From an uncultured candidate division Zixibacteria bacterium (lineage in GTDB: Bacteria; Zixibacteria; MSB-5A5; GN15; FEB-12), in contig CAVTJJ010000003.1 in the NCBI GenBank assembly GCA_963735035.1, positions 925,191-989,190 on the forward strand: a stretch of 64,000 bases of DNA, read 5' to 3'. Under the pieces are notes generated by a model. The model saw only the letters and a list, made by a program, of their open reading frames with translations. It did not search any database and was not told the origin of the DNA. Positions 8,646 to 30,052 of the stretch are shown here, one piece after another. Position numbers and translations under genes: made by a program. Within the stretch, counting starts at the first letter, position 1; every line of letters starts with the position of its first letter.

Positions 8646-10739
8646 CTACTTCAGCAGCAACATCTTCTTCATCTGAACTACTTCGCCCGCGCTGAGACGG
8701 TATAGGTATACGCCAGTCGAAACTGAGCTACCTTTATCGTCAGTGCCGTTCCACTCTGTCTGATACGAGCCTGCCGACATAGTCTCGTTTACCAACGTCC
8801 TCACCTTCTGGCCAATCACATTGAAGACTTCGATCGTAACCTTCGTCTGTGATGGCAGACTATATTCGATCGTGGTCGTCGGATTGAACGGATTCGGGTA
8901 ATTCTGTCCCAGTACGTAGAGGGAAGGAAGGACCTGATTCGGCTCACTGACATCAAGTGTGTTCGCCAGAGCCCGGACAGCATTGATTCTGCCGCCACTT
9001 ACCACCTTGCCCTGCAATTGTGTCAGGCCGTCGACTGAGTTGAATATACTCCTTCGCAAATCTGCAAACGTCGTGTTCAGGTTCTGCGAAAGAATCAGAC
9101 CCGCCAGCCCGGCCACGTGAGGCGACGCCATCGAGGTACCATCTATGTATTCGTAGCTCCATTCACTCCCGCTGCCCCCACCGTTCGCGGTGATTATTAC
9201 ATCATCAATGTACGCTCCATCGAAACAAGTTGACGCGTCAGTGCTCAACCTGAAGCGCAGATAGACCTGCGCATAACCTTCCAGGACGGAAAGGGGGACC
9301 CGCACTGATACGAATTGTCCGCTTGTCGTGCCTGTGCGCCCATCGATGATGCTCCACGAATACCCATCGACACAGGCGTCGACAAAAAGCCAGTCATACT
9401 GGGATTCCGTATCGAGCCTGAGCTGAAAATCAAGGACGGGTTGACTACCAGGTGCGAAGCTGAGAGGCTTTACCAGCATCAAGCATGATTCCTGATTGTT
9501 CTGGTACGTCCCTCCCGGGCTGTCTGTTGCGCTGTGGGTGGGGCTCACGCAGGCCTCTTGAGTGAGTTGCCAGTATCCATTTGTCCACCAATTAGACCCG
9601 TCCTCCATATTGTCCTGGAACAGGACGTTTCCGGTACTCGACGCCGGAACGGTACTGAATATTTTCACCCCCGGTGCAGCAACGTCAACGCCGATCGCCC
9701 CGTAGTTTGAAAACGAAGCCAGTCGATCATTCTTATCCGTCGCTGCCACGGTTATGACATTTTCAAGGTCAAAACTCCCCGGTGTATATGGTGTCACGTC
9801 AATGTTGACCCCATCATTTCCGGCGGCACACACGAACAGAACCCCCTTGTCACGAGCATACTTCACAGCGTCGTAGACCATCTGATCGTATCCCGGCCCG
9901 CCCCAACTGGCATTAATGATTCTGGCGCCATTGTCTACAGCGTATTTGACGGCCTTTATCAGATCGGCAGTCAAGCCGCCGTTTTCCCCCAACGCTCGAA
10001 CCGCCATGATCTTCGCTTTCCAGCAAACACCCGCTACACCTATTCCGTTGTTGCCCACCGCGGCTATGGTGCCCGCGACATGTGTGCCATGTTTGCCGGC
10101 CGCCGGGTCGTTGTCGTTTTGAACGAAATCCCAGCCATAATAGTCGTCAACGAAGCCGTTATTGTCGTCATCGACACCATTGATCGGATCATCGGCATTG
10201 ACCCACATATTCGCGGCCAGGTCTTCATGACCCCGGTAAACACCGTCATCCACAACCGCAATGACCACTTCCTCGGAACCGATAGTTACATCCCACGCCG
10301 ACAGCGCTCTGATATCGGCGTTCTGCGTCCCTCGGTCGCCGCCGACCGACTGCCCTGAATTGCTCATTCCCCAAAGACTGTCAAAGTGAGCGTCGTTGGG
10401 GCGGCTGAAGTTGTGATAGATGAAGTTGTACTGTACGTACTCTACTCCGCTCTTCTGTTCCAGAGAGTTCTTCGCCTCGTCGAGTGATGAGCCATCCGGG
10501 ATCCGGAGTATGACCGCATTCATATCCGGAATTTCCTCTTTGATCGACGCGTTCAGGTCCGCCGCCATGGCGCCGCCCTGAACCATGGCGCCTCTACCCG
10601 TAAACTTGACAATTAGCTCATTCGGGACATACTGCAACTGAGTGATCGGTCGCAATTCACCCTTCGCAGTGTCAGGACGAACTGATGCGCTCCACAGGAG
10701 GGTGAAGCTTACGGTAACTGCAATAACATCCCTCAACAT
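8646..10739 (-). CDS. Secreted S8 subtilisin-like serine protease with propeptide, inserted beta-domain and C-terminal FlgD/T9SS-like domain
   Basis: Triad motifs VAVVDDG, HGTHVAG and GTSMASPHV; oxyanion AAGN; C-terminal QNYPNPFNPTT...KKMLLLK. Confidence 0.95.
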   Translation of the reverse strand: MLRDVIAVTVSFTLLWSASVRPDTAKGELRPITQLQYVPNELIVKFTGRGAMVQGGAMAADLNASIKEEIPDMNAVILRIPDGSSLDEAKNSLEQKSGVEYVQYNFIYHNFSRPNDAHFDSLWGMSNSGQSVGGDRGTQNADIRALSAWDVTIGSEEVVIAVVDDGVYRGHEDLAANMWVNADDPINGVDDDNNGFVDDYYGWDFVQNDNDPAAGKHGTHVAGTIAAVGNNGIGVAGVCWKAKIMAVRALGENGGLTADLIKAVKYAVDNGARIINASWGGPGYDQMVYDAVKYARDKGVLFVCAAGNDGVNIDVTPYTPGSFDLENVITVAATDKNDRLASFSNYGAIGVDVAAPGVKIFSTVPASSTGNVLFQDNMEDGSNWWTNGYWQLTQEACVSPTHSATDSPGGTYQNNQESCLMLVKPLSFAPGSQPVLDFQLRLDTESQYDWLFVDACVDGYSWSIIDGRTGTTSGQFVSVRVPLSVLEGYAQVYLRFRLSTDASTCFDGAYIDDVIITANGGGSGSEWSYEYIDGTSMASPHVAGLAGLILSQNLNTTFADLRRSIFNSVDGLTQLQGKVVSGGRINAVRALANTLDVSEPNQVLPSLYVLGQNYPNPFNPTTTIEYSLPSQTKVTIEVFNVIGQKVRTLVNETMSAGSYQTEWNGTDDKGSSVSTGVYLYRLSAGEVVQMKKMLLLK

Positions 10740-10776: not shown

Positions 10777-10803
10777 AGTACCGCAGGACCCTCTGTTGTT
10801 ACA
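10777..10803 (-). promoter_or_regulatory. ECF-type promoter copy 1 (upstream of S8 protease)
   Basis: TGTAAC-AACAGAGGGTCCTGCG-GTACT. Confidence 0.7.
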
Positions 10804-11097
10804 GAGATGCCGGAAGATACTGACCACCCCGAGAACGACGGTCAATCGTCATTGAAGACGGCCTTCTCAGACCCCGGCAGGCCGACGGGGGGACAGTTTG
10901 CTTGGCTGCGCGTGGCTGTGCCCGGCTCATCTGCCAGATACCGCTTTGGAAAACGAGAAAGTAATAATGAAGCCTGAATGACCGATCGGACTCCCTCTGC
11001 GTGTCAATTGAAAGAAGATCTGGAATCCGTTTATCAGACTTGAGATTTGGACAAATAGTAAGCTCGCCGCCGCTGGATTTCAGTGCTACGACAACTG

Positions 11098-11955
11098 CTA
11101 TCTATCTGTTACAAGCCTAAACGAGAATGAACTCTCATTTACATTGAGCGAATCGGCGAAGCTCTTTTCTGCCACCACAAATTGGTACGATCCATCAATG
11201 ATGTTCTTTGTATCCAGGATTAGCTGAATTTTGCCCGGTACACTGTAATTGGCGAAGAGTGTGATCGGTGCTCTTTCGCGTTTCCCGGAATCAAAAAGTG
11301 AGTACTCATAACGATTCTCACTCGATAGATGATAAAATGGCAGGTCCATGCGAACCAGAGCATCACGTTCTGTTCGCGTGACCGTAGGCACGTCGGATGA
11401 TGAGCGATTCGCCTCAAGAAGTTGGAATACCTGAACGGGCACTGACTTATTATCACCGCTCGGTGCATGACCATTCGAATCGGTGAACCATCTGACGGTG
11501 GGATATGCAGCAAGCAGGAGAAGAAAGTACGCTACTGCCGGTTTGCGTAGAGGAATCACAATGTAATTCAGAACGGTCTGCCATATCGGAGCGCGATTAA
11601 GTTCCGACCTAACCGAGGCAGAGAGTTCCGTTTCAAGATCGTTCAAGAAAGCCAGATCGTAAGCGCACTTCTCGCAACTCTTCAGATGAGCTTCAATACG
11701 GCTTCGAACTTCGGGTGACAGACCGTGTCGGTTCTCATGATAGGAGGATACATCCTCTTGAGAAAGGTGACCCGCATGACCTGAAGAATTGGCTTCTGTG
11801 GCCGGCTTCTTGAGCATCCGCATGACCTTCAAGCTGTCCCGACACTCCACGCAGGCATCCAGGTGCCGCTTGACTTCCTGCGTCTCGGCCGGATCAAGAT
11901 GGCCCGTGGCAAAGTCATTCAGCTTGAGCCGGATATTTTCATCTAAGCATTTCAT
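11098..11955 (-). CDS. Zinc-binding anti-sigma factor with two zf-HC2 motifs, one TM helix and an extracytoplasmic domain
   Basis: HLDACVEC and HLKSCEKC motifs; hydrophobic AVAYFLLLLAAYP; directly downstream of the ECF sigma gene. Confidence 0.85.
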   Translation of the reverse strand: MKCLDENIRLKLNDFATGHLDPAETQEVKRHLDACVECRDSLKVMRMLKKPATEANSSGHAGHLSQEDVSSYHENRHGLSPEVRSRIEAHLKSCEKCAYDLAFLNDLETELSASVRSELNRAPIWQTVLNYIVIPLRKPAVAYFLLLLAAYPTVRWFTDSNGHAPSGDNKSVPVQVFQLLEANRSSSDVPTVTRTERDALVRMDLPFYHLSSENRYEYSLFDSGKRERAPITLFANYSVPGKIQLILDTKNIIDGSYQFVVAEKSFADSLNVNESSFSFRLVTDR

Positions 11956-11971
11956 GTGTCACCAACACAGA

Positions 11972-11998
11972 GGTGCCATCAGGCACCCGCCTGTTACA
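11972..11998 (-). promoter_or_regulatory. ECF-type promoter copy 2 (overlaps the sigma stop codon, upstream of anti-sigma)
   Basis: TGTAAC-AGGCGGGTGCCTGATG-GCACC. Confidence 0.55.
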
Positions 11999-12548
11999 GC
12001 AATTCTTTGACAAAATCCAGGTTTCTTGCCCGATCCAGACACCTAGAGATGGCGGTGCTGGTGGCGTTTTTGGTCTTCTTGAGGTGATCGGCTATTTCCC
12101 GATCCGACCATCCCTGCCGAAACTTCATGTCCAACAATTGGTTACACTTAGGGTCCAGGGCCATAAGAATATCCGTTGCCAGTTGACCATCGACCACTTG
12201 ATCGTCGGTCGCAACGCCTTTCGATTCGACATAGTCCAGCGGATCGTCAGTATAACTCACTCTAGCGCTTAATCTTAACCGCCTATTGATGCGGAATCTG
12301 ATGGTCTGGTAGATATAGACGTTGAATGCCGACAGCGTGTCGCCCCTGAATCGGCTTGCCCGCAAGCTGTCGAAGAGGATTTCGATCACTTCGGAGACGA
12401 TCTCTTCAGGATCTGTGTCCGAAGGTACCCCCTGGTGATACACGTACTGAGTGATCTTCTTCTTTATGATCGTGAACTGGCGACTGTCGCCCTTCAGAAA
12501 ACCGTCTACAACTAGTGTGAGTAATTGCTTGTCGTGATCGGTCTGCAT
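11994..12548 (-). CDS. ECF-type RNA polymerase sigma factor
   Basis: 184 aa; region 2 DPEEIVSEV...FNVYIYQTIR; region 4 LDPKCNQLL.MKF.QGWSDREIADHL...AISRC. Confidence 0.88.
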   Translation of the reverse strand: MQTDHDKQLLTLVVDGFLKGDSRQFTIIKKKITQYVYHQGVPSDTDPEEIVSEVIEILFDSLRASRFRGDTLSAFNVYIYQTIRFRINRRLRLSARVSYTDDPLDYVESKGVATDDQVVDGQLATDILMALDPKCNQLLDMKFRQGWSDREIADHLKKTKNATSTAISRCLDRARNLDFVKELL

Positions 12549-12700
12549 CTACGCCTCGACAAGGTACAATGCCTTCCGCCTGCCTGTTGTCTACTCTTTT
12601 GGAAGAGCGGTCCTGTCCCCAGAGTATAGTGGGCATCATACTCAACCACAATAACTTTCTCTGATTCGCGCCCGGCATACCTGCCATCGAGTTGAGACCA

Positions 12701-12727
12701 TGTAACAAAAAACTTCGAGCATGCACT
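12701..12727 (+). promoter_or_regulatory. ECF-type promoter copy 3
   Basis: TGTAAC-AAAAAACTTCGAGCAT-GCACT. Confidence 0.7.
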
Positions 12728-12965
12728 TATGATCGGTAGGAAGATTGAAACCACAGGACGAGAAGAAGCCCGGCTGATAACTATGGGAACTTAGACCGAA
12801 AATTGACCACAAACCGTGCGACCCGCCGAATTCTGCTCTCCGACTGAGCGGGGGGATGCCCGCTCCCACCTTAGAGGTGGTCATGGTGCGCCCGGCCTCT
12901 CTTGAATGAGACGGCCGGGCGCCTCCATTTTGGTTGGGTAAGATTCGCTGCGGGGTTCAAAACCG

Positions 12966-12992
12966 TGTAACAAAAGACCGGACCCTGGCACT
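12966..12992 (+). promoter_or_regulatory. ECF-type promoter copy 4 (upstream of the fibre/dockerin/CHAT operon)
   Basis: TGTAAC-AAAAGACCGGACCCTG-GCACT. Confidence 0.72.
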
Positions 12993-13049
12993 GATAGTCA
13001 GATACAAGATAACCGGTCGATGCCCCCGGAGTGTGTACTCCCGCGGATG

Positions 13050-13077
13050 TTGACAAAGAAAGAAGTTTGCATATATT
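13050..13077 (+). promoter_or_regulatory. Sigma70-type promoter candidate
   Basis: TTGACA-N16-TATATT. Confidence 0.5.
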
Positions 13078-13247
13078 TGTAAGAGGTACTACTCAACTGG
13101 AAATCATTGCCAACCATTGATAATGCAGCCCGCGTAAGGTGACAGCAGCAAATTGGCTGTGCGTCTGAGACCCCTCGGGCAATTTGGCAATACGCGTTCC
13201 GCCACAACGAAAACGAGTTGAACAAAATACAGAGGAGAAAGCGAAAT

Positions 13248-14488
13248 ATGCGCCCTACGCAGCTATTGCTTACGGCAATCATGGCGGCAACATTTCTGGT
13301 CCTTACGGGCTCGTTGTTTGCCGATCCGGTTCCTGAATACCAGAGAATACCGGAAAGTTTCACTGTCCAGGGATTCGCACTCGATAGCGCGGGATTCCCG
13401 ATTCCCGATGGCGTCTATCCTGTCACGTTCACTACCTACCATGACTCTTTATGTTCGGTTCCGGTATACACAGAGACACAATCGCTCGAGATCCAGGGCG
13501 GAAGGTTTGGTTCAATTGTCTTTGGACTGAATGGCATCGGCCCCTGGCCTCGTCCATTCCATCCGACAATTGACATTTATCCGTCTCGGTACCTAAAGAT
13601 ATCTATTGATGGTCAGGACATCCTGCCAATTATAGAGTTGCAGTCAGCTCCGACAGCTGTGATGGCTAGGCAGTGTTCGAGGCGATATCTTCACTTACGA
13701 AGGGGGGACGATATTCGCCAACCAGAATCTGGATTCGTCCGGGTATGTTAAGATCGACGGTGGCGCAGATAGTTCGTCGATCGGGCTGTTCAGTCCGGGT
13801 GCAGCTGATCCAAGCGTGCTACTTTCAAACCCGAGCTCGGGGGCACCGTCTCTGACAATGGGGGAGTCCTCCGGGGGTGCAATGCATACTATGACCATGG
13901 GACCCTCGGGCATAACGTTCGCATATTCACCAAGTTGGCCGGCAGGCTGGGATACTACACTCATCTTTTCCGGTGACAAGTTGACGTGCGCCGATACAAT
14001 TAGTTCAACCTCGGGGGGATTTCAGTTCCCGGATGGCACCGTTCAGACAACAGCCGCTGGTTCAGGAGGCGGCCCGTGGGAGACTTCCGGCTTGAATGTT
14101 TACGTCGATACCTCAGGTATTGACGATTACAGTGTTGGAGTAAATACGGCCACGCCCAATAGCCCGCTTCAGGTGGCAATGGTGCCGTTGCAACGGCTTT
14201 ACGAACCTTGTTGGAGCACAATTGTGACGCCTGACATCTGATCACTCCGTCGTACTTGTTTCTCCAAACGCCGGTCCAATAACGATCAGTCTGCCGACTG
14301 CGGCCGGCATAAGCGGCCGACAATACACTATCAAGAGGTCTGCCCTCGGCCCCGCTAACAGCGTCACCATTGACGCCTTGGCTCTGAATACATCGACGGC
14401 AGCCTATCATACTCCCTATCGGCGCAGTGGTAAGTACGTGGTGTTGGTTAGCAACGGTTCTTACTGGTGGGTCATTGGCAACAACTAA
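13248..14488 (+). pseudogene. Secreted fibre-like protein broken by several frameshifts (sequencing error or decay)
   Basis: GAGGAG RBS and signal peptide; N-domain IPESFTVQG..LDSAGFP..DG.Y.VTF..Y; then GGFQFPDGTVQTTA, VGVNTATPNSPLQV and, in shifting frames, ITISLPTAAGISGRQYTIKR and KYVVLVSNGSYWWVIGNN*. Confidence 0.65.
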
Positions 14489-14507
14489 GACAAGGCGAAG
14501 TAGTAAG

Positions 14508-15198
14508 ATGAAACAGTTAGACTTATTAGTCGTGAGCGTCGCCGCAGTCTTGTTGCTTCTTCTTGCCTGGAGCCTGGCCACAGGTGAGAGTCAGATTGAA
14601 CGCGACAGACAGCCGAGCGAAATAGCCGAAGCTCGCTTACTGCCGGCACATGATACGTCCACAAGTTCAGATCGGAACGGAGCCGTAAGCTCCAGTGTGA
14701 ATTCAGAGATCAGCCACCCACCTGCTTCCCTTCTCACCGTCGGGCCAAAACCTCGCGGAGTCGCGAGTGCGTCCGACATCTCCATTGATTGGTGGGTGGT
14801 GGCCGCGGGAGCGGTCGACGGCAGAGGACAATCCCTTCATCTACTCGCAACAATCGGTCAGGGTGTGATTGGAGAAGGTGCGTCAAGCAAGTATCTGTTG
14901 CGTTACGGATACTGGGCTGCGTCGAACGGCGCTGGTGGTTGTTGCCAGGGTCGGGTGGGCGATGTCAACCAGTCAGGTAACGACGAGCCTACTATCGGCG
15001 ACATTTCTACTTTGATCGACGCCAAGTTCATAACCGGGTCGTGCGACGGGGTGATTTCGTGTTTTGCCGAAGCTGATATCAATCAGTCCGGCGGTCCTAA
15101 CCCGACCTGTAATGACATCACGATTGGCGACATTTCTATCCTGATCGACTACTCTGTTCATTACGGGGCCTTCGCTTGGGCTTCATAACTGCCTGTAG
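14508..15198 (+). CDS. Secreted protein with a short beta module and a C-terminal dockerin-like domain; 1-nt frameshift near 15150
   Basis: CCQGRVGDVNQSGNDEPTIGDISTLIDAKFI...EADINQSGG...ITIGDISILIDY. Removing one base restores LFITGPSLGLHNCL*, matching the paralog at 61298-61837. Confidence 0.8.
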
Positions 15199-15286
15199 AT
15201 ATTGCGGCTGATTCAAAGGCTAGTCCCAGAATTCTGATTGTTGTTGCACGACAGCTCGGCTTGCTTAAATTACCTGCTATATCAGG

Positions 15287-18200
15287 ATGATTGGCTGCGT
15301 AATCGCATCGAAATCGAGCTCCGCCGTGCTAAGACGCATCTCACAAATCTCATGCCTCATAATCTGCACTCTTGTCGCGTCAATTAGCGCGGCTCCGGAA
15401 ACGGAGAAGTTGCTGACAACTGCTGACTCTCTCTTCGCGATCCAGATGTTGGACTCAGCTATTTCAGTCGGAAAAACGGCCCTGATTGCTGCCGAGCGCG
15501 ACCCGCGGTCGCCCGATTCCGTAATCGCCTCCATACACTACCTGCTCGGACTGAGTCATCTCTACAAGTCCGACTTGAATGAGGCCGTTAGTCATCTCGA
15601 TTCCAGCAGAATTACCCGAGTAACCGTGTACGGTGAAGATCATCCTCTCGTGGCGGATTGCGACTATTATCTCGGCGCCGCTCTAATGCAATTCGGCCAG
15701 TTTGATCTAGCCGAACAACACTATGCCAAAGCGCTGTCTGTCCGAGAGGCTGCCTACGGACCCGACCATGAGCAGGTGGCCGCCACCCTCGTAGGATACT
15801 CGTCGCTTTATGCCTACATGGGTCGCTATGACCGAACGGAAATGCTAGTCCAGCGTTTGCTCGGGATCCAGGAGAGAAATCCGAATATTCCCACGGCACA
15901 GGTCGTGAAAGCGCTGATCCTCCTGGCCGGAGTTAAGCTGGACTCCGGCCGATTTAGGGACGCAGAACAATATTACCGTCGCGCCCTGACCCTCTTGGAG
16001 AATACTTCAACGACCGACGCGTTTACCGAAGGTTCAGTACATTGGGGGCTGGGAAAAGCACTTCTGTTGCAGGGTGATCTGCCACAGGCGGAGAGTCATT
16101 ACTTGAAAGCCATTGATCTGACCCGCGCCACTCAGGGCGAAGGCAGCTACCAGATCGGGGCTCTGAAATCGGAATTGGGGCGTCTCTACACCATGCGCCT
16201 TCAGTACTCCGAGGCTGAAACTCTCCTGACTGAGGCGCTCTCCCAGCTGCGCGCATCCATTGGTGAAGACAATGAATTCGTGGCCTATTGCCATCAATGG
16301 CTTTCCCGGATCTACGCGTATCAGGGAAGATACGCGATGGCGCAGCGGACCGCCGAAGAAGCTGTCAAGTCAGCCGGAGCTACCTTCGGAAGAGACCATC
16401 ACGAAACTGCTCAGGTGATGAACTGGCTGGCGGAAGTTCACTTAATGGCAGGCAATTACCAAATTGCCGATTCGATCGCTACCGCGGCCACGGCCATCAT
16501 AGTCAGTGAGCTCGGCGAGACCCACCCATATCTCGTCGATGGTTTCAACATTATCGGGTATGCCAGGATGCAACTCGGCGACATGATAAGCGCCGCCAAG
16601 TACTTTGAAAGGTCTCTCGCAATCGGTCTGGCGGCAGGCGGCCAAAATCATCCCTCGGTCGCGGCCACTTATGAGGTCCTTAGCGAACTGCGCCGCCGTA
16701 CAGGTGAACGGGAACTGGCGCTTGACATGTCGCGCCGGGCGGTACTGGGTCGTCGAAATAATCTGCGTCTGGGGTGTGCCGTCATGTCCGAGCAGGAGGC
16801 TTTAGACTATGCCTTTCTGGTCAAGCGTGCCCTGAACCTTTACTTGTCCTCTCTGCGCGACTTGCCCAACCCGAATCCTGAAATTGCAAAGGCCGCTGCC
16901 GAGTTGATCGCCAATACCAAGGGACTGGTGACCGACGAAATGTTGCTGCGATCATCTTCGCTTCGCACTGACACAAGTTCAGCAGAGAAAGTCTTGAAGG
17001 ACACCGTTGATGCGGCCCGGTTCGAATTGGCTTCGCTGTTCGGCAACTTTTCCAGTGAAGTTGACCAGTCCACCTACCGAAGCAGGCTTGATTCCTTGTC
17101 GAGCCATGTGCAGGCCCTGGAGGCACGACTCGCCCGCCAGGTAACTTCGGATGTTGGCCTCCGTACTAGCGATTCAATCAGTATTGACCGATTGCAAAAA
17201 GAACTGAAACCTGATCAGGTGGCCGTCGAATACCTCCGATACACCTATAAAGATCCGCGAAACCAGAATGCGGAAGATCGATACCTGGTGCTGTTATTGA
17301 ATCCCGCTTCCGAGACCCGTGTAATTGACTTGGGAACCGCGGAACTGATTGATAAAGCTGTGGGTCGTTACCGGAAGCACATATCTGACCTCGCCGCCGC
17401 CGGGCAACCTCCCGACCAAGAAGCCCTTGACGATTATCGCCGGCTTGCCGGAGATCTCTATACTACTGTATGGCGTCCCCTGGAACCATACCTGGGTGCG
17501 AGCCGGATGATCTTCATCTCGACTGATGGATCTCTGAATCTGTTGTCATTTGCGGGCCTTCCTTGCTCCGATAATGAATACCTGATTGAAAAATACCGCC
17601 TTCACTACTTGTCCACTTCGCGCGATCTTTGTCGCTCCCCCCATCAGAGTGCCACCGGGCGCAGTCTGGTACTAATCGGGGACCCGGATTTTGGCCTCGC
17701 AGTTCAGCCAAGCCAGGTGGACCCGGAATCGGGTTCATCGGTCGACCCAGCTCTCGGGTGTGGCAGCATTGATCGCAGTCGTCTATCGCCGTTGCCGGGA
17801 ACTCGCCGCGAGGTAGAACGAATCGCTCGTCTGTGGCGACAGCAGGTTTCGGACAGCGTTACCGAGTTGACAGGCGCAGGAGCCACAGAAGGTGCTTTCA
17901 GAAAATTAGCTCCGTCAGCCACCACCGTTCACATCGCTACTCATGGGTACCTGGCCGCCGATAGCTGCTTCAGGATCGAAGCTTCCGCACCGAGTCTGGC
18001 CAATGAAGATTTCTTTACCCGCAACCCGCTTTTGCTTTCCGGCTTGTTCCTGGCAGGAGCGGCCGCGCCGGGAAAGTCCCGGGTTCGTTTTGATAGCCGC
18101 GATGGGATGCTCTCTGCCGAGGAAGTGGCCACCTTGGACCTTCACAAAGTTGGACGGGTGGTACTATCGGCCTGTGAATCGGGGCTTGGAACGGTGGAAT

Positions 18201-18457
18201 CCGGCGAGGGTGTCTATGGCCTGAGAAGGGCTTTTCAAATGGCCGGTGCCGGCACGGTCATCAGTTCACTCTGGAAGGTCCCGGACAACACTACGGCTCA
18301 GTTCATGGCGCGGTTGTATTCGACTGACAACGAGCCTGTCCCGGCAGCCATGCAATCGTCTTGCCTCGACATGCTGTCCCAACTACGCCGTCGTGGCCAG
18401 CCGGACCATCCATTTCTATGGGCTCCGTTCATAAGTATCGGTGACTGGCGGGAGTAG
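15287..18457 (+). CDS. TPR-repeat CHAT (caspase-like) protease with N-terminal hydrophobic/signal segment
   Basis: Multiple TPRs (HPLVA, HEQVA, HPSVA); catalytic VHIATHG and VVLSACESG; SLWKV.D; HPFLWAPF. Confidence 0.93.
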   Translation: MIGCVIASKSSSAVLRRISQISCLIICTLVASISAAPETEKLLTTADSLFAIQMLDSAISVGKTALIAAERDPRSPDSVIASIHYLLGLSHLYKSDLNEAVSHLDSSRITRVTVYGEDHPLVADCDYYLGAALMQFGQFDLAEQHYAKALSVREAAYGPDHEQVAATLVGYSSLYAYMGRYDRTEMLVQRLLGIQERNPNIPTAQVVKALILLAGVKLDSGRFRDAEQYYRRALTLLENTSTTDAFTEGSVHWGLGKALLLQGDLPQAESHYLKAIDLTRATQGEGSYQIGALKSELGRLYTMRLQYSEAETLLTEALSQLRASIGEDNEFVAYCHQWLSRIYAYQGRYAMAQRTAEEAVKSAGATFGRDHHETAQVMNWLAEVHLMAGNYQIADSIATAATAIIVSELGETHPYLVDGFNIIGYARMQLGDMISAAKYFERSLAIGLAAGGQNHPSVAATYEVLSELRRRTGERELALDMSRRAVLGRRNNLRLGCAVMSEQEALDYAFLVKRALNLYLSSLRDLPNPNPEIAKAAAELIANTKGLVTDEMLLRSSSLRTDTSSAEKVLKDTVDAARFELASLFGNFSSEVDQSTYRSRLDSLSSHVQALEARLARQVTSDVGLRTSDSISIDRLQKELKPDQVAVEYLRYTYKDPRNQNAEDRYLVLLLNPASETRVIDLGTAELIDKAVGRYRKHISDLAAAGQPPDQEALDDYRRLAGDLYTTVWRPLEPYLGASRMIFISTDGSLNLLSFAGLPCSDNEYLIEKYRLHYLSTSRDLCRSPHQSATGRSLVLIGDPDFGLAVQPSQVDPESGSSVDPALGCGSIDRSRLSPLPGTRREVERIARLWRQQVSDSVTELTGAGATEGAFRKLAPSATTVHIATHGYLAADSCFRIEASAPSLANEDFFTRNPLLLSGLFLAGAAAPGKSRVRFDSRDGMLSAEEVATLDLHKVGRVVLSACESGLGTVESGEGVYGLRRAFQMAGAGTVISSLWKVPDNTTAQFMARLYSTDNEPVPAAMQSSCLDMLSQLRRRGQPDHPFLWAPFISIGDWRE

Positions 18458-18476
18458 GAGCGTCTGATGTGATTTA

Positions 18477-19568
18477 TCATTGTGCCGCCGCCACGGCTTC
18501 CAACAGTTGAGTGATTACCGGCGTCTCGAACGGCTCAAGGCCCTGTTCCTTTTCTATCAGGTAGGTACACAGCGGCTTTACATCGCCATTGGCATGATAC
18601 CGATGAGGAGCCATAGGCACACCGCTTCGGCATAGTAGCAGATACCGACATTCACGGCACCATCGATTCACTGAATCACGATGCATCTTGCGGTTATACG
18701 CAAAGGCATCAGGGTTATTCCAGATATCGGCGATGGGGGTAACGCGGATATTCCCTTCGATGAATTCATCAGTCATCTCTGCGGCACCTTTCACTTCACC
18801 GGATGGTCCAACCGCCAGGTAGTGTACTCCGGATCCATCGCCCAAAAACGGGCGGCCCCCGCGCAGTTTCATTCCCTTAGTTCCATAGTGGCCTATCTCA
18901 TCGGTCGCGCTAATTGTGATGCGAGTATCGCTCTGCATTTCAATGATCTTATCAATCATCGTGGTGTATTCTTCCCTGGTCAGGACCATGTCTGCATGGG
19001 AGGCCATGCGGCCGGTTGGCTGAATCATTTGAATGCGCCAGTCTGCACACCCGGCATCGATTAGCGCACTTTTGATAGCCTCAAGCCGATCGAGGTTCAT
19101 TCTGGAAACAGCCGTAACTGCCGCAACCTTCAGACCGGGCACAGAACTGGCGAGCTTGATTGCCGCCATCGCCCGATCATACGCATCTGGACAACAGCGG
19201 ATCATATTGTGTGTCTCGCGGTCTCCATCGACACTGATGCCTAGTGAGTTAACTCCAGCGTCGACAAGTGACTGGAGTCGAGACGGTGACAGCAAGAGAC
19301 CATTGGTTATCAAACCTATACGCGCCTCTTTGCTTGATATATACTTGATAACCTCAATAAGGTCCGGACGTATCAATGGTTCACCGCCGGTCAAACAGAA
19401 CTGGCGACAACCGAGGTCAAGAAGATCGTCGATCATCATCTTGGCCTCCGCCGTGGTCAGTTCATCTGATCTGGGCTTGGCGGACGCATTGCCGCAATGC
19501 TTGCATCGTAAGTTGCAGCCGCGTGTAACTTCCCACACTGCAACAGTTAGCTTGAAATCTGAGTTCAT
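18477..19568 (-). CDS. Radical SAM protein with a degenerate SPASM domain (candidate peptide maturase)
   Basis: CNLRCKHC, TGGEP, ITNG, ISVDG; C-terminal GNIR..DIW, CRECRYLLLC...PLC. Likely start MNSDF follows GAAAGGAAG. Confidence 0.9.
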   Translation of the reverse strand: MNSDFKLTVAVWEVTRGCNLRCKHCGNASAKPRSDELTTAEAKMMIDDLLDLGCRQFCLTGGEPLIRPDLIEVIKYISSKEARIGLITNGLLLSPSRLQSLVDAGVNSLGISVDGDRETHNMIRCCPDAYDRAMAAIKLASSVPGLKVAAVTAVSRMNLDRLEAIKSALIDAGCADWRIQMIQPTGRMASHADMVLTREEYTTMIDKIIEMQSDTRITISATDEIGHYGTKGMKLRGGRPFLGDGSGVHYLAVGPSGEVKGAAEMTDEFIEGNIRVTPIADIWNNPDAFAYNRKMHRDSVNRWCRECRYLLLCRSGVPMAPHRYHANGDVKPLCTYLIEKEQGLEPFETPVITQLLEAVAAAQ

Positions 19569-19590
19569 TGTCTTCCTTTCGAGTGAGAAT

Positions 19591-19613
19591 AGGGGGCAGA
19601 GGATCTGCCCCCT
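19591..19613 (-). terminator. 10-bp hairpin between the peptide gene and the radical SAM gene
   Basis: AGGGGGCAGA-TCC-TCTGCCCCCT, with no strong U-tract. Confidence 0.6.
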
Positions 19614-19620
19614 CGGCAGA

Positions 19621-19710
19621 CTAGAGTATGATCCAAGGTCTCGGTATGAGGATGTGCAGAATATTGAGACCCGCATTGATGATAGTGGTTGAGGTAATGA
19701 TCGGGATCAT
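19621..19710 (-). CDS. 29-aa peptide MIPIITSTTIINAGLNILHILIPRPWIIL; candidate RiPP precursor
   Basis: AAGGAG (19718-19723) lies 7 nt before the ATG; TAG at 19621-19623; sits between ECF promoter copy 5 and the radical SAM gene; too short for the ORF track. Confidence 0.65.
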   Translation of the reverse strand: MIPIITSTTIINAGLNILHILIPRPWIIL

Positions 19711-19768
19711 GGCGTTGCTCCTTGTTTGAGTTGTTGGTTATGTTGGTTTTCGTTTTCATTTGTCCATT

Positions 19769-19795
19769 AGTGCCACCTACCCTCCGGTTGTTACA
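19769..19795 (-). promoter_or_regulatory. ECF-type promoter copy 5 (upstream of peptide and radical SAM)
   Basis: TGTAAC-AACCGGAGGGTAGGTG-GCACT. Confidence 0.72.
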
Positions 19796-19976
19796 GACTT
19801 CCTGCTCACCTTCTAATTATGCGTAACTTATTGTGTATCAACAGAAACCGCCCACGAGAGGGATAAGCGCCTTCGGGTGCTCTGGCTTACCGCCAGTATC
19901 AAGGTTATCGATGGCCAGCCCGACCAGCCGCGTTTGTTACAGCCTTTCACATAGGATTCCCCCGGAAACGAAGAGA

Positions 19977-20000
19977 GGTCGCCCCCGAATGGGGGCGACC
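19977..20000 (-). terminator. Terminator of the FN3 lipoprotein gene
   Basis: GGTCGCCCCC-4nt-GGGGGCGACC, then pyrimidine-rich TCTCTTCGTTT on the minus strand. Confidence 0.6.
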
Positions 20001-20038
20001 CGTTGATGAAGTCTATCGATTCTTTATGTAGAACCGCA

Positions 20039-20773
20039 CTATTGCACGGTAATCTCGACTGTGTTACTGACCGGTGACTCCCCGGCAGCGTTCAATGCGA
20101 CCACCCGGTACCGATACTTTCCACCTAGAACCACACTGCGATCCGTGGCTACGACGGCATCTATTGCAGCTTCATGCGTCAGAGCGGTCCATCCCCCAAA
20201 TCTGGACGATAACGAGTTCCAAACGGCGCGATCGATACGAAAACCGGACTCACACTCCGAGTTGTCGTTCCATTTGAGGATAACACCGTAGCCGATAGCT
20301 GGGAATCTGTCCGGCCTCAGAATCGCAGCAGTCAAACCGTCGGGCGCAACCGGGACGGCCCAATTGCATATACTTGCTTCGTTCGAGAACTCAGAGGCGC
20401 CCACATCATTGATCGCGCGTACCCGGAAATCGTAGCCAAAGAATGAAGGCGCATTAACGGTGCATTCAGTAGAGTCGGGATCGACTGTGGTAATTCGTTC
20501 CCAGCTTAACGGATGCTCGGGGATAGCGAGACCACCAAGGCGCTGAATCTCGAAACCGGTCTCATTGTAGGAATTATCGCTCCAGGTGATGTGAGCGGTC
20601 GTCTCAGAAACACGGGTGGCGACCAGGGTCGATGGCGCAGCCGGCACTATGACAGGCGGGTTGGGTTCGGGGCGGGGATCCGGTTCAGGCGCGACTGAAT
20701 TGTCGGAGCAGGACATCATCGCAACTCCTAGCGTCAGCACAACACAAGCAGTGATAAACATTCTCTGGAACAT
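20039..20773 (-). CDS. Lipoprotein with two fibronectin type III domains
   Basis: Lipobox-like VAMMSC and Pro-rich linker; two repeats of AP..L.A...W.DNS..E.GF.I.R...YRV.A.N..G.S..SN. Confidence 0.88.
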   Translation of the reverse strand: MFQRMFITACVVLTLGVAMMSCSDNSVAPEPDPRPEPNPPVIVPAAPSTLVATRVSETTAHITWSDNSYNETGFEIQRLGGLAIPEHPLSWERITTVDPDSTECTVNAPSFFGYDFRVRAINDVGASEFSNEASICNWAVPVAPDGLTAAILRPDRFPAIGYGVILKWNDNSECESGFRIDRAVWNSLSSRFGGWTALTHEAAIDAVVATDRSVVLGGKYRYRVVALNAAGESPVSNTVEITVQ

Positions 20774-20820
20774 AATAGCCTCCTTTGTTTGGTTGATTCC
20801 AGTTTCATTTTCTGATCATC

Positions 20821-20847
20821 AGTGCCCCGAGCGCCTTGTTTGTTACA
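20821..20847 (-). promoter_or_regulatory. ECF-type promoter copy 6 (upstream of FN3 lipoprotein)
   Basis: TGTAAC-AAACAAGGCGCTCGGG-GCACT. Confidence 0.72.
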
Positions 20848-21021
20848 GTTCTCCCTGAAGTTGTGCGCGTATCCGATACAAGATCACTGCTGACCGAGAT
20901 CAGGACCAAGAGACAGCAGCAGAAATACATCGGAACGCTGGTTACTGACAGGGAAAGCATCTAATCCCCTGCGCGCGCTTGATTGGATTGATTCGTGACA
21001 GACCAGAAATACTAAAGCACC

Positions 21022-21074
21022 AGCGGCAGGTCACTTCATGGTTTGAACTAAGTTCACCATGAAGGCCTGCCGCT
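21022..21074 (-). terminator. Long hairpin downstream of the 21091-21705 gene
   Basis: AGCGGCAGG..CTTCATGGT.TGAACT / AGTTCA.CCATGAAG.CCTGCCGCT. Confidence 0.5.
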
Positions 21075-21090
21075 TGGCGTGACGAGATAT

Positions 21091-21705
21091 TTAGTATTTT
21101 GTGAAGGACCCCATCAACGAGCTGATTTGTCGATCCGAAGACGACAACTCGGCCATCGAGTAAAATCCGTTCGAACAGAAGAAGGCGATCGCGCGTTTAC
21201 CGTTACCGGGACCAATGAAAGTACCATAGTAACCATAGACTTGCTCGGATTCTGTCGTATAAGCACCGATACCTCCGCCGTTCCAAAGCAGGGCGGCGTC
21301 AGGTTCTTTGTAATAAGTAAAATTGCCGTTGGCATCGAAGGTGAGTTGTCTTAGACCTGATTCCACGCTGTTGCCAATCTTGCCGTCGCCGGTATAACTC
21401 TTGTCGCCCCCGGTCACGTATTGTCCACTCAAACCACCAATAGTAACCACATAGCTCACCCCGGTGCCGTCGTGTGAAACGGTGAAGCTGTTGGGTCCAC
21501 TCTGCGTGACAGTTACTTGAGCTCCGGTGAAGTCCCAAATGAGTTTCGCGCCGCCACTTTGTGCTCCGGACGCTCCACCGCTCCCGGTACCGCCGCTTCC
21601 GTAGGGACTTTGAGCTTGTGAGTGCCCTGCAACAAACAGAGATGATCCTAGAAAAACTGCGAACACCGCGAGAAGTGCCCCTGAGTTAACAATTGACGTA
21701 TTCAT
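21091..21705 (-). CDS. Hypothetical exported protein with Gly/Ser linker and beta-rich domain
   Basis: AAGGAG RBS, signal peptide ending SQA-Q, GSGGTGSGGASG linker. Confidence 0.75.
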   Translation of the reverse strand: MNTSIVNSGALLAVFAVFLGSSLFVAGHSQAQSPYGSGGTGSGGASGAQSGGAKLIWDFTGAQVTVTQSGPNSFTVSHDGTGVSYVVTIGGLSGQYVTGGDKSYTGDGKIGNSVESGLRQLTFDANGNFTYYKEPDAALLWNGGGIGAYTTESEQVYGYYGTFIGPGNGKRAIAFFCSNGFYSMAELSSSDRQISSLMGSFTKY

Positions 21706-21746
21706 TCTTGTTTCTCCTTTGACTCATGTTCTTTGCTCTGCCCAGG

Positions 21747-21773
21747 AGTGCCGAGTCGACCGGTTCTGTTACA
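21747..21773 (-). promoter_or_regulatory. ECF-type promoter copy 7
   Basis: TGTAAC-AGAACCGGTCGACTCG-GCACT. Confidence 0.72.
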
Positions 21774-22290: not shown

Positions 22291-23982
22291 ATGTCCACTA
22301 ATGATCTTCTCCAGGTTCTGGTCTACATCATAGCGCTGGTCACCGTGGCTCCCCTGTTAGGCGCTTTCCTGGCACGGGTCTTTACAGACCGGCCACACCC
22401 GCTCAAGCTTGCCCTCGGGTGGTTAGAGAAGGGTATCTACAAGTTTGGTCGCATAGATAGTAACAGCGAGATGAATTGGAAAGATTACGCCAGGTCACTG
22501 CTATGGCTCAACGGTCTTGGATTTGTCTTTCTTTTTGTTCTGCAGATTTGTCAGCAGTGGCTTCCACTTAATCCACAGCACTTGCCAAATGTCGGATGGC
22601 CGCTGGCATTCAACACCGCTGTCAGTTTCGTTACCAACACGAATTGGCAATCCTATGCCGGAGAGACTACGCTCAGTTATCTGACCCAAATGATCGGTCT
22701 GACCGTGCAGAATTTTGTCAGTGCCGCCACGGGAATTGCTGTGTTTCTCGCCCTGACACGTGGAATTATTCGGAAGACAACTGACAAGATCGGAAACTTC
22801 TGGGTCGATGTAACGCGCTCGATTGTCTATGTCCTGCTGCCGCTTTCTTTGCTTCTTGGGATCGTGTTAGTCGGCGAGGGCGTGGTGCAGACTTTCTCGC
22901 CTGCTGCCACCGTGACCACCGTAGAAGGTCCGGCGCAGACTATTCCGCTTGGTCCGGCCGCATCCCAGATTGCCATAAAGCAGTTAGGTACCAATGGCGG
23001 CGGCTTCTTCAATGCCAACAGCGCTCATCCACTGGAGAATCCCACGCCAATATCAAATTTCCTTCAGATGCTGGCCATTTTGCTCATCCCGGCAGCTCTA
23101 ACTTTCACTTATGGCAGGCTAGTGGGCAATCGCAAGCACGGGTGGGTCATTTTCGCCACCATGTTTGTGCTTTGGTTTGCCGGATTGTCACTCTCACTCT
23201 ACGGTGAGTATTCTGCCAACCCGGCCCTGGGATTGCAGACTAATATGGAAGGAAAAGAAGTTCGGTTTGGCATCACGAACAGCATCATTTGGTCTTCTGC
23301 CACCACTGCCGCCTCGAACGGCTCCGTCAACGCTATGCACTCGAGTCTCACACCTTTGGCGGGCGGCGTAGCTCTTTTCAATATCATGTTGGGTGAGATC
23401 ATATTCGGCGGAGTCGGCGCCGGCATGTACGGCTTCTTGCTGTACGTTCTTATGACCGTCTTTCTTGCCGGATTGATGGTAGGTCGCACGCCGGAGTATC
23501 TGGGCAAGAAAGTCGAGGCACATGAGATTCAGATGACCATTGTGGGGATTCTGGCTCCTAACACCGTCATCCTCATTGGCGCTGGGCTTGCCTGCGTCCT
23601 GCCGATCGCGCTGGCAGGTCTGGCCAACCAGGGACCGCACGGTCTAAGCGAGATACTGTACGCCTTCTCCTCAGCGGCCGGCAACAATGGCAGTGCCTTT
23701 GCCGGACTGAACGCTAATACCAATTTCTATAACATCACCCTGGGCGTGGCGATGCTCATAGGCCGTTTTGCAATCATCCTGCCCTGCCTGGCAATCGCAG
23801 GTCACTTGGCCGGCAAGAAACGGTCACCTCTGTCGGCCGGCACGTTTGCGACCGATAACACAACCTTCGCCGTGCTCCTAATTGGCGTGATTCTAATCGT
23901 CGGCGCGCTTACTTTTCTTCCTGCGCTGGGATTGGGTCCGATAGTCGAACACTTGTTAATGCTGTCCGGACGAACCTTCTGA
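22291..23982 (+). CDS. kdpA: K+-transporting ATPase subunit A
   Basis: [39 protein letters not shown]. Confidence 0.98.
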
Positions 23983-23990
23983 GGGAACCT

Positions 23991-26087
23991 ATGGCTGAAT
24001 CGGTTTCAGGACTCTTCAACAGAGCTTTGCTGGGGTTTGCGATCCGGGCGTCCCTCAAGAAGCTAAATCCGCGTGACCAGGTTCGAAATCCGGTCATGTT
24101 TGTGGCCTACGTTGGTGCCATCCTCACCTCCATATCGTTCGCTGCCGGCTGGATTCAGGGATCATGGTCCGGATTTGAATTCCAGATTAGTCTCTGGCTT
24201 TGGTTCACCGTCCTATTTGCCAATTTCGCGGAATCGATGGCTGAGGGACGTGGCAAAGCCCAGGCCGACAGCCTGAAACGAGCGCGCAGCGAGACGTTCG
24301 CTCGTCTTCTCAAGTCAGGTCGGGAAGAACGCACCGCGGCCACTCTGCTGCAAAGAGGAGACGAGGTCGTCTGCGAGGCAGGAGATATCATACCGTCAGA
24401 TGGCGAAGTGATCGAGGGAATCGCCAGCGTCGATGAATCGGCCATCACCGGCGAATCAGCCCCGGTCATACGTGAAAGCGGTGGCGACCGGAGCGCTGTA
24501 ACCGGCGGAACGCGAGTAATCAGCGATCGGATCGTCATTCTAATCACTTCCGAGCCCGGCAATACCTTTGTCGATCGTATGATCGAACTGATCGAAGGAG
24601 CAAAACGCCACAAGACCCCGAACGAAATCGCACTCGGCATTGTCCTGGCCGGACTGACTATTGTCTTCTTGCTGGCCGTCGCGACGCTGAAATTCTTTGC
24701 CGATTACAGCGGCACGTCCGCGGGACAGGATCTAAGCAAGATAGTAACCGTTACCGTGCTAGTGTCTCTGCTTGTTTGCCTCATTCCTACCACAATTGGC
24801 GCACTTCTGAGTGCTATTGGGATAGCCGGCATTGACCGGCTTGTCCAGCGAAACGTAATCGCCAAGAGCGGTCGCGCGGTTGAGGCCGCGGGTGATATCG
24901 ACGTACTCTTGCTCGATAAGACCGGGACGATCACTTTGGGCAATCGAATGGCTACCGATTTCGCACCAGCAGAAATGATACCGGTGCAGAACCTGGCGGA
25001 AACGGCTCAATTGGCGTCGTTGGCTGATGAGACTCCGGAAGGTCGTTCTATCGTCATTCTGGCTAAGGATCGCTACGGGTTTCGTGCGCAGACTCTCACG
25101 CCGAGCCAGGCGCGGTTCGTGCCCTTTACCGCACAGACTCGTATTAGTGGTGTCGACATACTCGAACCCGACGGTTCGATCGCAATGAGCATCCGCAAAG
25201 GAGCGGTTGATTCCATGCGCGAGCATCTGCTGCGGCATGGTGGCAGTTTTCCCGATGAATTAGAATCGATTCAAAGCGAGATCGCGCGTTCCGGCGGAAC
25301 ACCACTGGCCGTCAGCATCGACAATCAGGCGATTGGAATTGTGCAACTCAAGGATGTGGTCAAGGGCGGTATCAAGGAACGGTTCGCCCAACTGCGCAGG
25401 ATGGGCATTCGCACGGTTATGGTGACAGGGGATAATCCGCTCACCGCGGCGGCCATAGCGGCCGAGGCGGGGGTCGATGATTTTATCGCGCAGGCGACAC
25501 CAGAAGCCAAATTGGAGCGAATTCGAGAGGAACAGCGCGCCGGTCATCTGGTTGCCATGACGGGCGACGGCACCAATGACGCTCCAGCCCTTGCCCAGGC
25601 CGACGTCGGCGTTGCAATGAATACAGGTACTCAGGCGGCACGCGAAGCAGGCAACATGGTGGATCTCGACAGTAATCCGACGAAACTGATTCAGATTGTG
25701 GAAATCGGGAAACAGCTGCTAATGACCCGCGGCTCACTGACTACCTTTAGTATCGCCAACGATGTGGCCAAGTATTTTGCGATCCTTCCGGCAATGTTCG
25801 GAACGCTCTATGCGATGTCCGGCTCAAGTACCGGTCCGTTGGCCGCCATGAATATCATGCATCTTCACTCGCCGGAGAGCGCCATACTCAGCGCAGTAAT
25901 CTTCAACGCGCTGATAATTGTCGCCTTGATTCCCCTGTCACTGCGTGGCGTGACCTATCGACCGGAAAGCGCCGAGAGACTCTTGCGTCGCAATCTGCTG
26001 CTCTACGGCCTCGGAGGTATTGTTTCGCCGTTCATAGGTATTAAGCTAATTGACCTTCTGCTGGTGGCCGGCCGACTCGCAAACTAA
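23991..26087 (+). CDS. kdpB: K+-transporting ATPase subunit B
   Basis: [29 protein letters not shown]. Confidence 0.98.
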
Positions 26088-26097
26088 GGTAGACTCT

Positions 26098-26670
26098 GTG
26101 CGAACAATAATGACAGCCCTGAAGACACTAATCGTGTTGACGCTCTTGACCGGAGTTGTCTATCCGCTCCTGGTAACGGTGGTCGGTTATCTCTGCTTTC
26201 CGCATCAGGCCTCGGGCAGCCTGCTGGTAGTGAACGGGAGACCTGTTGGCTCAAACCTTGTCGGGCAGAAGTTCACCGATTCAAGTTACTTCTGGCCGCG
26301 TCCTTCCACCATCGACTATGATCCACTACCCTCCGGCGGAAGTAATTTGGGACCGACCAGCGACGCGCTTAAAGACAGCATTTCGTCGCGACGAAACAGA
26401 CTCGCGCAAACCGGAAATGGGGCAGTCCCGATTGATCTGCTCTGCGCCTCGGCCAGCGGCCTGGACCCGGATATATCACCCGAAGCGGCTCTTTTTCAGG
26501 CTGACCGCGTGGCGCGGGCAAGACGACTTGACCAGGCACAAAAAACCGCGCTTCTTTCACTTGTAGAGAGACATACCGAATACCCCAACATAGGGATATT
26601 CGGTCAGCCGAGAATAAATGTACTCAGGTTGAATCTCGCTTTGGACTCACTGATAAAGGCGTCGTCGTGA
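26098..26670 (+). CDS. kdpC: K+-transporting ATPase subunit C
   Basis: YPLLVT, GQKFT..YFWPRPS, SASGLDPDISP, INVLRLNLALD; start at GTG 26098 or ATG 26110. Confidence 0.95.
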   Translation: MRTIMTALKTLIVLTLLTGVVYPLLVTVVGYLCFPHQASGSLLVVNGRPVGSNLVGQKFTDSSYFWPRPSTIDYDPLPSGGSNLGPTSDALKDSISSRRNRLAQTGNGAVPIDLLCASASGLDPDISPEAALFQADRVARARRLDQAQKTALLSLVERHTEYPNIGIFGQPRINVLRLNLALDSLIKASS

Positions 26671-29363: not shown

Positions 29364-30052
29364 CCGGTGCCCGCATCCTTGTCATAGATGATGAGTTGGC
29401 CATTCGCCGCTTCCTGAAAATCAGCCTGGAAGCCGAAGGCCATACATTCATTGAAGCCGACACCGGGGAGACCGGGCTTGTGGCCGCGGCCACTCAGCGC
29501 CCCGACTTGATCATACTTGACCTTGGCCTTCCCGATTTGGATGGTGCCTCAGTGTTGAAGCGCTTGCGGGAATGGTCTTCGGTGCCCGTCATCATTTTGA
29601 CTGTCAGAGATTCCGAAATTGAGAAAGTCGCGTTACTCGATGCCGGTGCGGATGACTATCTGACCAAGCCGTTTGGGGTGCCCGAACTCCTGGCTCGAGT
29701 TCGGGTAGCCTTGCGACATAAGCAGTCCGGGGAATCCGAACCGTCGATTCGCATTGGCGATCTGGAGATAGATTTCACAGTCCGAGCAGTCATTCTGCGT
29801 GGTGAAGCAGTTCGTTTGACGGCCACGGAGTATGAACTGCTGAGGGTACTGGCACAGCATGCCGGCAAAGTCGTCACTCAGCGGCAGCTGCTGAAGGATA
29901 TCTGGGGACCACAATCAGTGGATCAATCCCAATACCTGCGGGTCTATATCGCTCAGCTTCGCAAGAAATTGGAACGCGATGCAGGTCGGCCCGAACTCAT
30001 CGTCACCGAGCCGGGCGTGGGGTATCGGCTGCGATCGATAGATGAACGGTAG
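29360..30052 (+). CDS. kdpE: Response regulator KdpE
   Basis: DLGLPDLDG, YLRVYIAQLRKKLE, TEPGVGYR. Confidence 0.96.
   Translation: MTGARILVIDDELAIRRFLKISLEAEGHTFIEADTGETGLVAAATQRPDLIILDLGLPDLDGASVLKRLREWSSVPVIILTVRDSEIEKVALLDAGADDYLTKPFGVPELLARVRVALRHKQSGESEPSIRIGDLEIDFTVRAVILRGEAVRLTATEYELLRVLAQHAGKVVTQRQLLKDIWGPQSVDQSQYLRVYIAQLRKKLERDAGRPELIVTEPGVGYRLRSIDER

Follow-up and report, generated by a model that had tools for sequence, protein, structure and literature searches.

What reads a 27-nucleotide motif that recurs seven times within 11 kb of an uncultured Zixibacteria genome, and what would it switch on? The window, meaning the whole stretch of DNA analysed here, comprises 64,000 nucleotides (nt) of contig CAVTJJ010000003.1 (positions 925,191 to 989,190, forward strand; assembly GCA_963735035.1), in a genome of 3,614,957 bases in 6 contigs that is 96.9% complete (G000). 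The original prediction, made from the letters alone, took the motif TGTAACA-N15-GYACY as the promoter consensus of a sigma factor of the extracytoplasmic function (ECF) type encoded among the copies. The explanation that we consider very probable for the circuit as a whole is that the motif is the -35/-10 promoter of this sigma factor (11994-12548) and that its regulon in G000 is confined to the 11-kb block.

The motif and the adjacent sigma factor

A pattern search returned exactly the seven 27-nt sites of the original prediction, on the same strands, and found no further full match in the window, an absence that had been judged by eye; 100 dinucleotide shuffles of the window gave 0 matches. 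The -10 element reads GCACT in five copies, GTACT in one and GCACC in one, and the -35 element compares with the TGTAAC of Bacillus subtilis SigX. The predicted ECF promoter copies and the sigma gene, with lengths in amino acids (aa), are as follows.

10777..10803, minus strand: copy TGTAACA-N15-GTACT, 37 nt before the ATG of a subtilase gene; 22.0 bits with the matrix described below
11972..11998, minus strand: copy TGTAACA-N15-GCACC, overlapping the sigma stop codon and ending 16 nt before the anti-sigma ATG
12701..12727, plus strand: first copy of a tandem pair, divergent from the sigma gene
12966..12992, plus strand: second divergent copy, 255 nt before ATG 13248
19769..19795, minus strand: copy 58 nt before a 29-codon open reading frame (ORF) that precedes a radical SAM gene
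20821..20847, minus strand: copy 47 nt before a fibronectin type III gene
21747..21773, minus strand: copy 41 nt before the gene of an exported 204-aa protein
11994..12548, minus strand: ECF sigma factor, 184 aa; TIGR02937 at 43.1 bits against a cut-off of 42.9

Measurement confirmed the distances of 16-58 nt from the minus-strand copies to a start codon (16, 37, 41, 47 and 58 nt). The statement that all copies point toward downstream genes needs a qualification for the two plus-strand copies: these stand in tandem, face away from the sigma gene, have long leaders and have no gene close by; ATG 13248 apart, a search within 320 nt of 12727 turned up no start that has a ribosome-binding site. 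The roughly 240 nt between the pair (12728-12965, plus strand) hold no ORF having a ribosome-binding site and, by eye, contain GC-rich inverted repeats; a small RNA or a structured leader is possible there. Behind the 12966 site lies a near-consensus sigma-70 promoter (13050-13077, plus strand; TTGACA-16-TATATT, 11/12), which suggests that the divergent genes may be under dual control by the ECF site and this promoter.

Judged by its sequence, the 11994-12548 product is an ECF (group 4) sigma factor with the sigma2 and sigma4 regions only. TIGR02937 is matched by 29 of 29 aligned family members, the Pfam r2 and r4_2 matches of the window protein are weak and under the cut-off, and the family profile matches SigL and PDB entry 9isn. 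The family is discrete: 33 representatives were found at E <= 1e-10, full-length hit scores fall from about 90 to 50 bits, and the profile finds a sigma in 16 of 285 phylum genomes at E <= 1e-25. Our comparisons draw on 23 loci, namely the window, 17 close relatives (177-290 bits) and five weaker ones (70-98 bits), with doubly fetched loci counted once.

A genome-wide motif scan, which the original prediction had called for, gave 7 matches to the strict pattern in the whole of G000, all inside 10777-21773, and the TGTAACA version gave 0-2 genome matches at each of the 19 alternative spacer lengths in the range 8-27 nt (measured from TGTAAC). A matrix trained on 44 sites from 21 loci outside the window ranked the window's seven sites 1-7 in G000 (24.5-18.4 bits; next best 18.2). 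A genome-wide regulon was rejected, since the strict matches and the top matrix hits are confined to the block. Across the 285 phylum genomes, raw per-genome pattern counts were uninformative because the background is about one match per genome, and clustering alone was therefore used. Among the matches listed (three are unlisted) and judged by eye, clusters within about 12 kb occur only in G000, G099, G108 and G132, and every one of these clusters lies at a family sigma. Genome G120 has two sites 20 kb apart, with no family sigma at either place. The GC content of the block (0.50-0.56) is only slightly lower than that of the contig (0.554), and we therefore make no claim of recent transfer.

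These comparisons uphold both parts of the original reading. The copies cluster at family sigmas, take matrix ranks 1-7 and keep a fixed register at the sigma gene end (see below), so that the motif is very probably an ECF promoter; it co-occurs with this sigma family across phylum genomes, and the sigma that reads it is in all likelihood the adjacent one. Several points weigh on the other side. The matrix is only semi-independent: the stop register and a pattern taken from the window guided the choice of its training sites, and outside the window most antisense and stop-site scores were obtained with the scored site itself in the training set. At 18.4 bits, the stop-codon site of the window barely exceeds the background at 18.2 and 17.5. 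The loci are kin, and G000 has other ECF-like sigmas (15 first-look candidates).

The last point bears on a different reader, one or several ECF sigmas encoded elsewhere. -35 elements of the GTAAC type are common in ECF groups (ECF16, 40, 120, 127, 231, 235 and 264, in the part of the group table covered), and other sigma-like loci are present in G000. However, it is only next to members of this sigma family that the sites cluster, which holds in several families of the phylum, and they form a physical part of the sigma gene end; were the reader a distant sigma, sites would be expected in other parts of the genome, and none was found in G000. We regard a different reader as unlikely. A conventional transcription-factor binding site, or the remains of a dispersed repeat, would accommodate the two copies with long leaders, one of them with no nearby gene, and the near-consensus sigma-70 promoter (11/12) behind the 12966 copy. 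Against this, the motif is non-palindromic and strand-directional, has two conserved blocks around a fixed-length unconserved spacer (31% identity), and usually stands 16-60 nt before a start codon, which makes either origin highly unlikely.

The -10 element had been called atypical. GYACY is indeed unusual, but a GCAC-type precedent has been predicted: the nearest published motif that we found, in a table of ECF groups covered in part, is that of ECF264, GTAACCTT / GGCACATT (Casas-Pastor 2021 supplement, PMC7826278). As described there, ECF264 belongs to Firmicutes, carries a DUF1835 C-terminal extension of about 350 aa and has no anti-sigma, whereas the sigma here has 184 aa and an adjacent anti-sigma. 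ECF120 has the -35 element TGTAACAAA in common but a different -10, TCGTCAT, and ECF54, which likewise has TPR-CHAT and subtilase genes among its neighbours, is described as actinobacterial, without an anti-sigma and with the motif GTATCAG / CTCC (PMC7826278). By these descriptions the family appears set apart from ECF264 and ECF54, and we have not placed it in a named ECF group.

The copy on the sigma stop codon

While its reading of the motif is supported, the original prediction overlooked the overlap of one copy with the stop codon of the sigma gene, from where it would drive the anti-sigma gene and no other; the anti-sigma/TPR-CHAT module went unmentioned. The gene that this copy faces is adjacent to the sigma gene in 23 of 23 loci.

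11098..11955, minus strand: anti-sigma, 285 aa, with two zinc-finger (ZAS) modules (zf-HC2 twice), one predicted transmembrane helix at about 139-161 and an extracytoplasmic beta-sandwich

The -35 element at 11998-11992 reads TG-TAA-CA, in which TG closes the last Leu codon, TAA (11996-11994) is the sigma stop and CA are the next two bases. Each locus was anchored at the Cys that is conserved in region 4; of all positions up to 30 nt to either side, offset 0 of the stop register gave the best match in 22 of 23 loci, where 12 of 12 letters matched in seven loci, 11 in nine, 10 in two, 9 in three and 8 in one. The stop codon lies within the -35 in 16 of these 22 (15 TAA, 1 TGA). Five others have the stop 24-48 nt further on and keep the motif inside the coding sequence (TGTACCA in four), and in the remaining locus the sigma stop comes 15 nt earlier than the register.

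Such an overlap could be a by-product of TAA use and a Leu, Met or Val C-terminus, with no promoter involved, for TG plus TAA follows from a terminal codon of this kind and a TAA stop. Of 29 aligned sigmas, 25 stop at the same column, 21 of those 25 in Leu, Met or Val, the residues that an NTG last codon calls for. The conservation, however, reaches past the gene. The A and C of the -10 (A25 and C26), about 20 nt into non-coding DNA, are invariant in 22/22 loci, as is G2, with a mean spacer identity of 31%; the CA following the stop is present in 19/22 at each position, and the pattern outlives loss of the stop. We consider a by-product extremely unlikely. The conservation has its gaps, which count against a promoter in this register: the stop site is degenerate (8-9/12) in 4 of 22 loci, the G037 site is displaced 13 nt downstream of the stop register, and the five stop-loss loci may descend from a single event. 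Even so, the comparison gives strong support to the stop-codon copy as a predicted promoter for the anti-sigma alone. A distant relative, L020 (G028), has TGA in the -35 (TGTGACA) at its stop site and TGTCACA at its divergent site, possibly through co-variation of sigma and promoter. The literature searched, which excluded most subscription journals, held no description of a promoter overlapping a sigma stop codon, nor of this module; the related papers in it dealt with craspase, DdvA, SAVED-CHAT and other defence proteases, and the text on SAVED-CHAT, as far as covered, names no residue at a cleavage site.

The original prediction had also taken the sigma as apparently not autoregulating its own gene, and the comparison supports this. 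No sense-strand site lies upstream of the sigma gene in any of the 23 loci (0/23; best matrix score <= 6.9 bits, up to 420 nt upstream), and a sigma-70 scan found nothing facing the sigma gene. On the divergent strand, 17 of 23 loci have a site of at least 12.9 bits within the same 420 nt, many of them training sites. Positive autoregulation is usual for ECF sigmas, though not required, and its predicted absence here has strong comparative support. As no site faces the sigma gene, the layout would be one of direct negative feedback without direct positive autoregulation: the genes that the sigma appears to drive are those of its inhibitor and of flanking proteins, mostly with hydrophobic N-termini, and not its own.

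Feedback through the anti-sigma alone is also described for sigH-rshA of Corynebacterium glutamicum, where the sigma has housekeeping promoters and a sigma-dependent promoter serves the ZAS anti-sigma only, with fast shut-off as the proposed role (PMC3489674). There, unlike here, the anti-sigma RshA is soluble and redox-sensing and the regulon of its sigma is genome-wide; rshA transcripts start 62-66 nt upstream of rshA, and the accessible part of that paper describes no overlap of the -35 with the sigH stop codon (PMC3489674). Escherichia coli rpoE-rseA provides a partial precedent for an anti-sigma with its own sigma-dependent promoter, the separate sigma-E-dependent P3 of rseA (PMC8595263, as far as covered), but rpoE also has a sigma-E promoter. 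For an ECF family from an uncultured phylum, the analysis thus gives precise predictions of the promoter, the regulon and the layout of feedback. Standard ECF promoter predictions, as described in the part of the source covered, rely on autoregulation (PMC7826278) and would overlook a family of this kind, whose motif is recovered by inspecting the sigma stop codon.

The anti-sigma and the TPR-CHAT protease

The third part of the module is encoded beyond the divergent genes.

15287..18457, plus strand: TPR-CHAT caspase-like protease, 1056 aa, with a hydrophobic N-terminus pointing to export and a His886/Cys963 dyad

Taken from sequence, the module has three separately encoded parts, an ECF sigma, a membrane anti-sigma with two zinc-finger modules and a TPR-CHAT protease that is probably exported, a split arrangement resembling DdvS/DdvA. 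The His886/Cys963 dyad is invariant in 15/15 aligned CHAT proteins, and in 17 of 23 loci the DNA fetched includes a CHAT gene, mostly tail-to-tail with that of the anti-sigma (the outer flanks fetched for G097 and G276 lay outside the CHAT annotation). The anti-sigma N-terminus matches the RslA and RsiW folds at middling scores (Z 6.4-6.7), and a fold search returned generic Ig-like sandwiches (best Z 7.4) and no specific family. In locus L001 the anti-sigma (2958-3809) has lost the zinc-ligand residues from both ZAS modules and kept the outer Arg discussed below. Locus L047 (1751-6028; G273) holds a second sigma-like/zinc-finger/CHAT trio a few kb from the first.

DdvS/DdvA of Myxococcus xanthus, as described in the parts of two papers covered, pairs an ECF sigma with a zinc-binding single-pass anti-sigma that carries an extracytoplasmic TPR-CHAT region (PMC11506125, PMC6061681). 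The likeness lies in the same three parts, in few promoters clustered in one island and in GTAA within the -35. The differences, within the same coverage, are several. CHAT is here a separate gene with an intact His-Cys dyad, unfused in 16 other loci too (the search for anti-sigma relatives covered 74-508 aa, and longer fused forms fall beyond that range), whereas in DdvA it is fused and described as incomplete; the anti-sigma here has two ZAS modules, unlike DdvA. The -10 is GYACY here and CGT in DdvS promoters (GTAA-n16-CGT); none of the 7 sites has CGT there. DdvS is autoregulated and the sigma here apparently is not, and the predicted targets are exported proteins here, as against a CBASS/CRISPR island for DdvS; a general Pfam scan of 16 window ORFs and 30 neighbour ORFs found no CBASS/CRISPR families (PADLOC was not run). 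By analogy the module would work like DdvS/DdvA but is no member of that group: its CHAT is not fused, its -10 is a different one and autoregulation is apparently missing.

What, then, would release the sigma? Separase, a CHAT-type protease, cleaves after EXXR, and craspase, another, cleaves Csx30, which binds a sigma factor (PMC9729208, in the part covered). The outer region of the anti-sigma carries E181-x-x-R184-S in a predicted loop (182-190), outside the sandwich core. R184 is present in 18/18 full-length anti-sigmas and E181 in 15/18, and the next residue is S, G or A in 18/18; the alignment also holds two short members that lack the outer region, and the G037 and G162 anti-sigmas lie outside it. 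By alignment and model, this amounts to ExxR with a small following residue in a loop, as in separase-type substrates. That this CHAT cleaves the anti-sigma is, on balance, slightly favoured; a cut exactly after R184, the candidate site, is somewhat less assured.

The promoter reading could also be right with CHAT as just a regulon member or neighbour, not the site-1 protease, and with R184 structural or ligand-binding. The comparison with separase and craspase lends weight to this: Ala1004 aligns with craspase K670, the counterpart of the Arg-binding Asp2151 of separase (a weak alignment, E 0.3), which leaves the S1 Asp missing at the aligned position, and the invariant CHAT acids E842, E974 and D1000 lie at other positions. 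Unlike craspase, the protease here has no CRISPR link and is probably exported. In the window and in L001, moreover, the CHAT gene could end a promoter-led gene run like other exported targets; its membership of the regulon is no more than possible, since related loci have no site of at least 15 bits directly before a CHAT gene. Locus L023 has an ExxR anti-sigma and no CHAT in the fetched DNA, and L002 has no adjacent CHAT on a contig of only 4.6 kb. A PDB sequence search with the whole CHAT protein gave TPR proteins only, among the matches listed, and the CHAT domain alone gave weak craspase hits only. A predicted complex of CHAT (200-1056) with anti-sigma 160-285 scored 0.26 against a mark of 0.32, with no controls folded, and favours neither reading.

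Set against CHAT as a bystander are the invariance of R184 and its predicted place in the loop and not in the sandwich core, and the adjacency of CHAT in 17/23 loci whereas other neighbours vary. Short anti-sigmas also go without an adjacent CHAT: those of G005, G097 and G162 lack a transmembrane helix and have none beside them, although CHAT genes lie elsewhere in these genomes, which tells the other way. G037 (97% complete) has no CHAT match in its genome and an anti-sigma without Arg at that column, a single case with an ambiguous insertion in the alignment. On this evidence CHAT as a mere regulon member or neighbour is possible, if doubtful. Short double-ZAS anti-sigmas without transmembrane helix or outer domain are seen at L019:5838-6245, L045:10270-10707 and L049 (about 2180-2600); two of these three loci have a Ser/Thr kinase with TPRs nearby in place of CHAT.

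With CHAT acting on the anti-sigma, the preferred reading, the circuit would run as follows. At rest, a promoter of another type would supply the sigma, which the membrane anti-sigma would restrain. A signal would inactivate the anti-sigma, most likely through the exported TPR-CHAT protein cutting or gripping its outer ExxR loop, and intramembrane proteolysis would follow, by analogy with DdvA. The released sigma would then transcribe genes for exported and surface proteins and, from the copy on its own stop codon, the anti-sigma alone. The site-1 protease of E. coli rpoE-rseA is DegS. Taken to its full extent, the proposal is a stand-alone envelope circuit in which CHAT is a site-1 protease with separase-like ExxR specificity for a double-ZAS anti-sigma, the sigma is non-amplifying and refills its inhibitor, and promoter selection fixes sigma length and C-terminal residue phylum-wide; in this extended form we hold it only tentatively. 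The module would offer a counterpart of DdvA in two unfused proteins, its dyad intact and its candidate cut site named, and through it the direct triggering of anti-sigma proteolysis by a periplasmic CHAT protease becomes a testable question.

Genes behind the predicted promoters and other neighbours

The predicted targets and the genes around them are listed below.

8646..10739, minus strand: S8 subtilase carrying a FlgD/secretion-tail domain at its C-terminus, predicted target
13248..14490 (end approximate), plus strand: gene of an exported-type protein in three successive frames, with breaks near 13690 and 14200-14240
14427..15188, plus strand: exported protein with a C-terminal repeat common to many genes of the genome (many tblastn paralogues)
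18477..19568, minus strand: radical SAM/SPASM enzyme, its start at 19568 with a ribosome-binding site
19621..19710, minus strand: putative gene, a 29-codon hydrophobic ORF with a good ribosome-binding site, first behind the 19769 copy
20039..20773, minus strand: fibronectin type III protein whose N-terminus resembles that of a lipoprotein, predicted target
21091..21705, minus strand: exported 204-aa protein, predicted target

The frame breaks in 13248-14490 may reflect an assembly error or a pseudogene. Pieces of this gene resemble neighbours in related loci, for example L001:7535-9688, which carries Peptidase_S74. Large exported-type Peptidase_S74 (tail-fibre chaperone) proteins are encoded near the sigma there and at L019:7654-10374, L050:10930-13452 and L052:10703-12961, and in three of these four loci the gene is the first large one behind the divergent promoter. 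The following gene, 14427-15188, probably starts at an ATG near 14509; Pfam gave no match for its product, whose C-terminal repeat is probably dockerin-like, and its C-terminus seems frame-shifted at about 15150-15190, through assembly indels or decay.

The 29-codon ORF could encode the precursor of a modified peptide, given its place before the radical SAM/SPASM gene; no similar peptide was evident upstream of a 40%-identical radical SAM/SPASM paralogue on contig C2 of G000. After the block, 22291-30052 (plus strand) holds what we take, from the translations, to be a kdp potassium-uptake operon, and the weaker motif match of 17.5 bits lies antisense within it, at 28618 on the minus strand.

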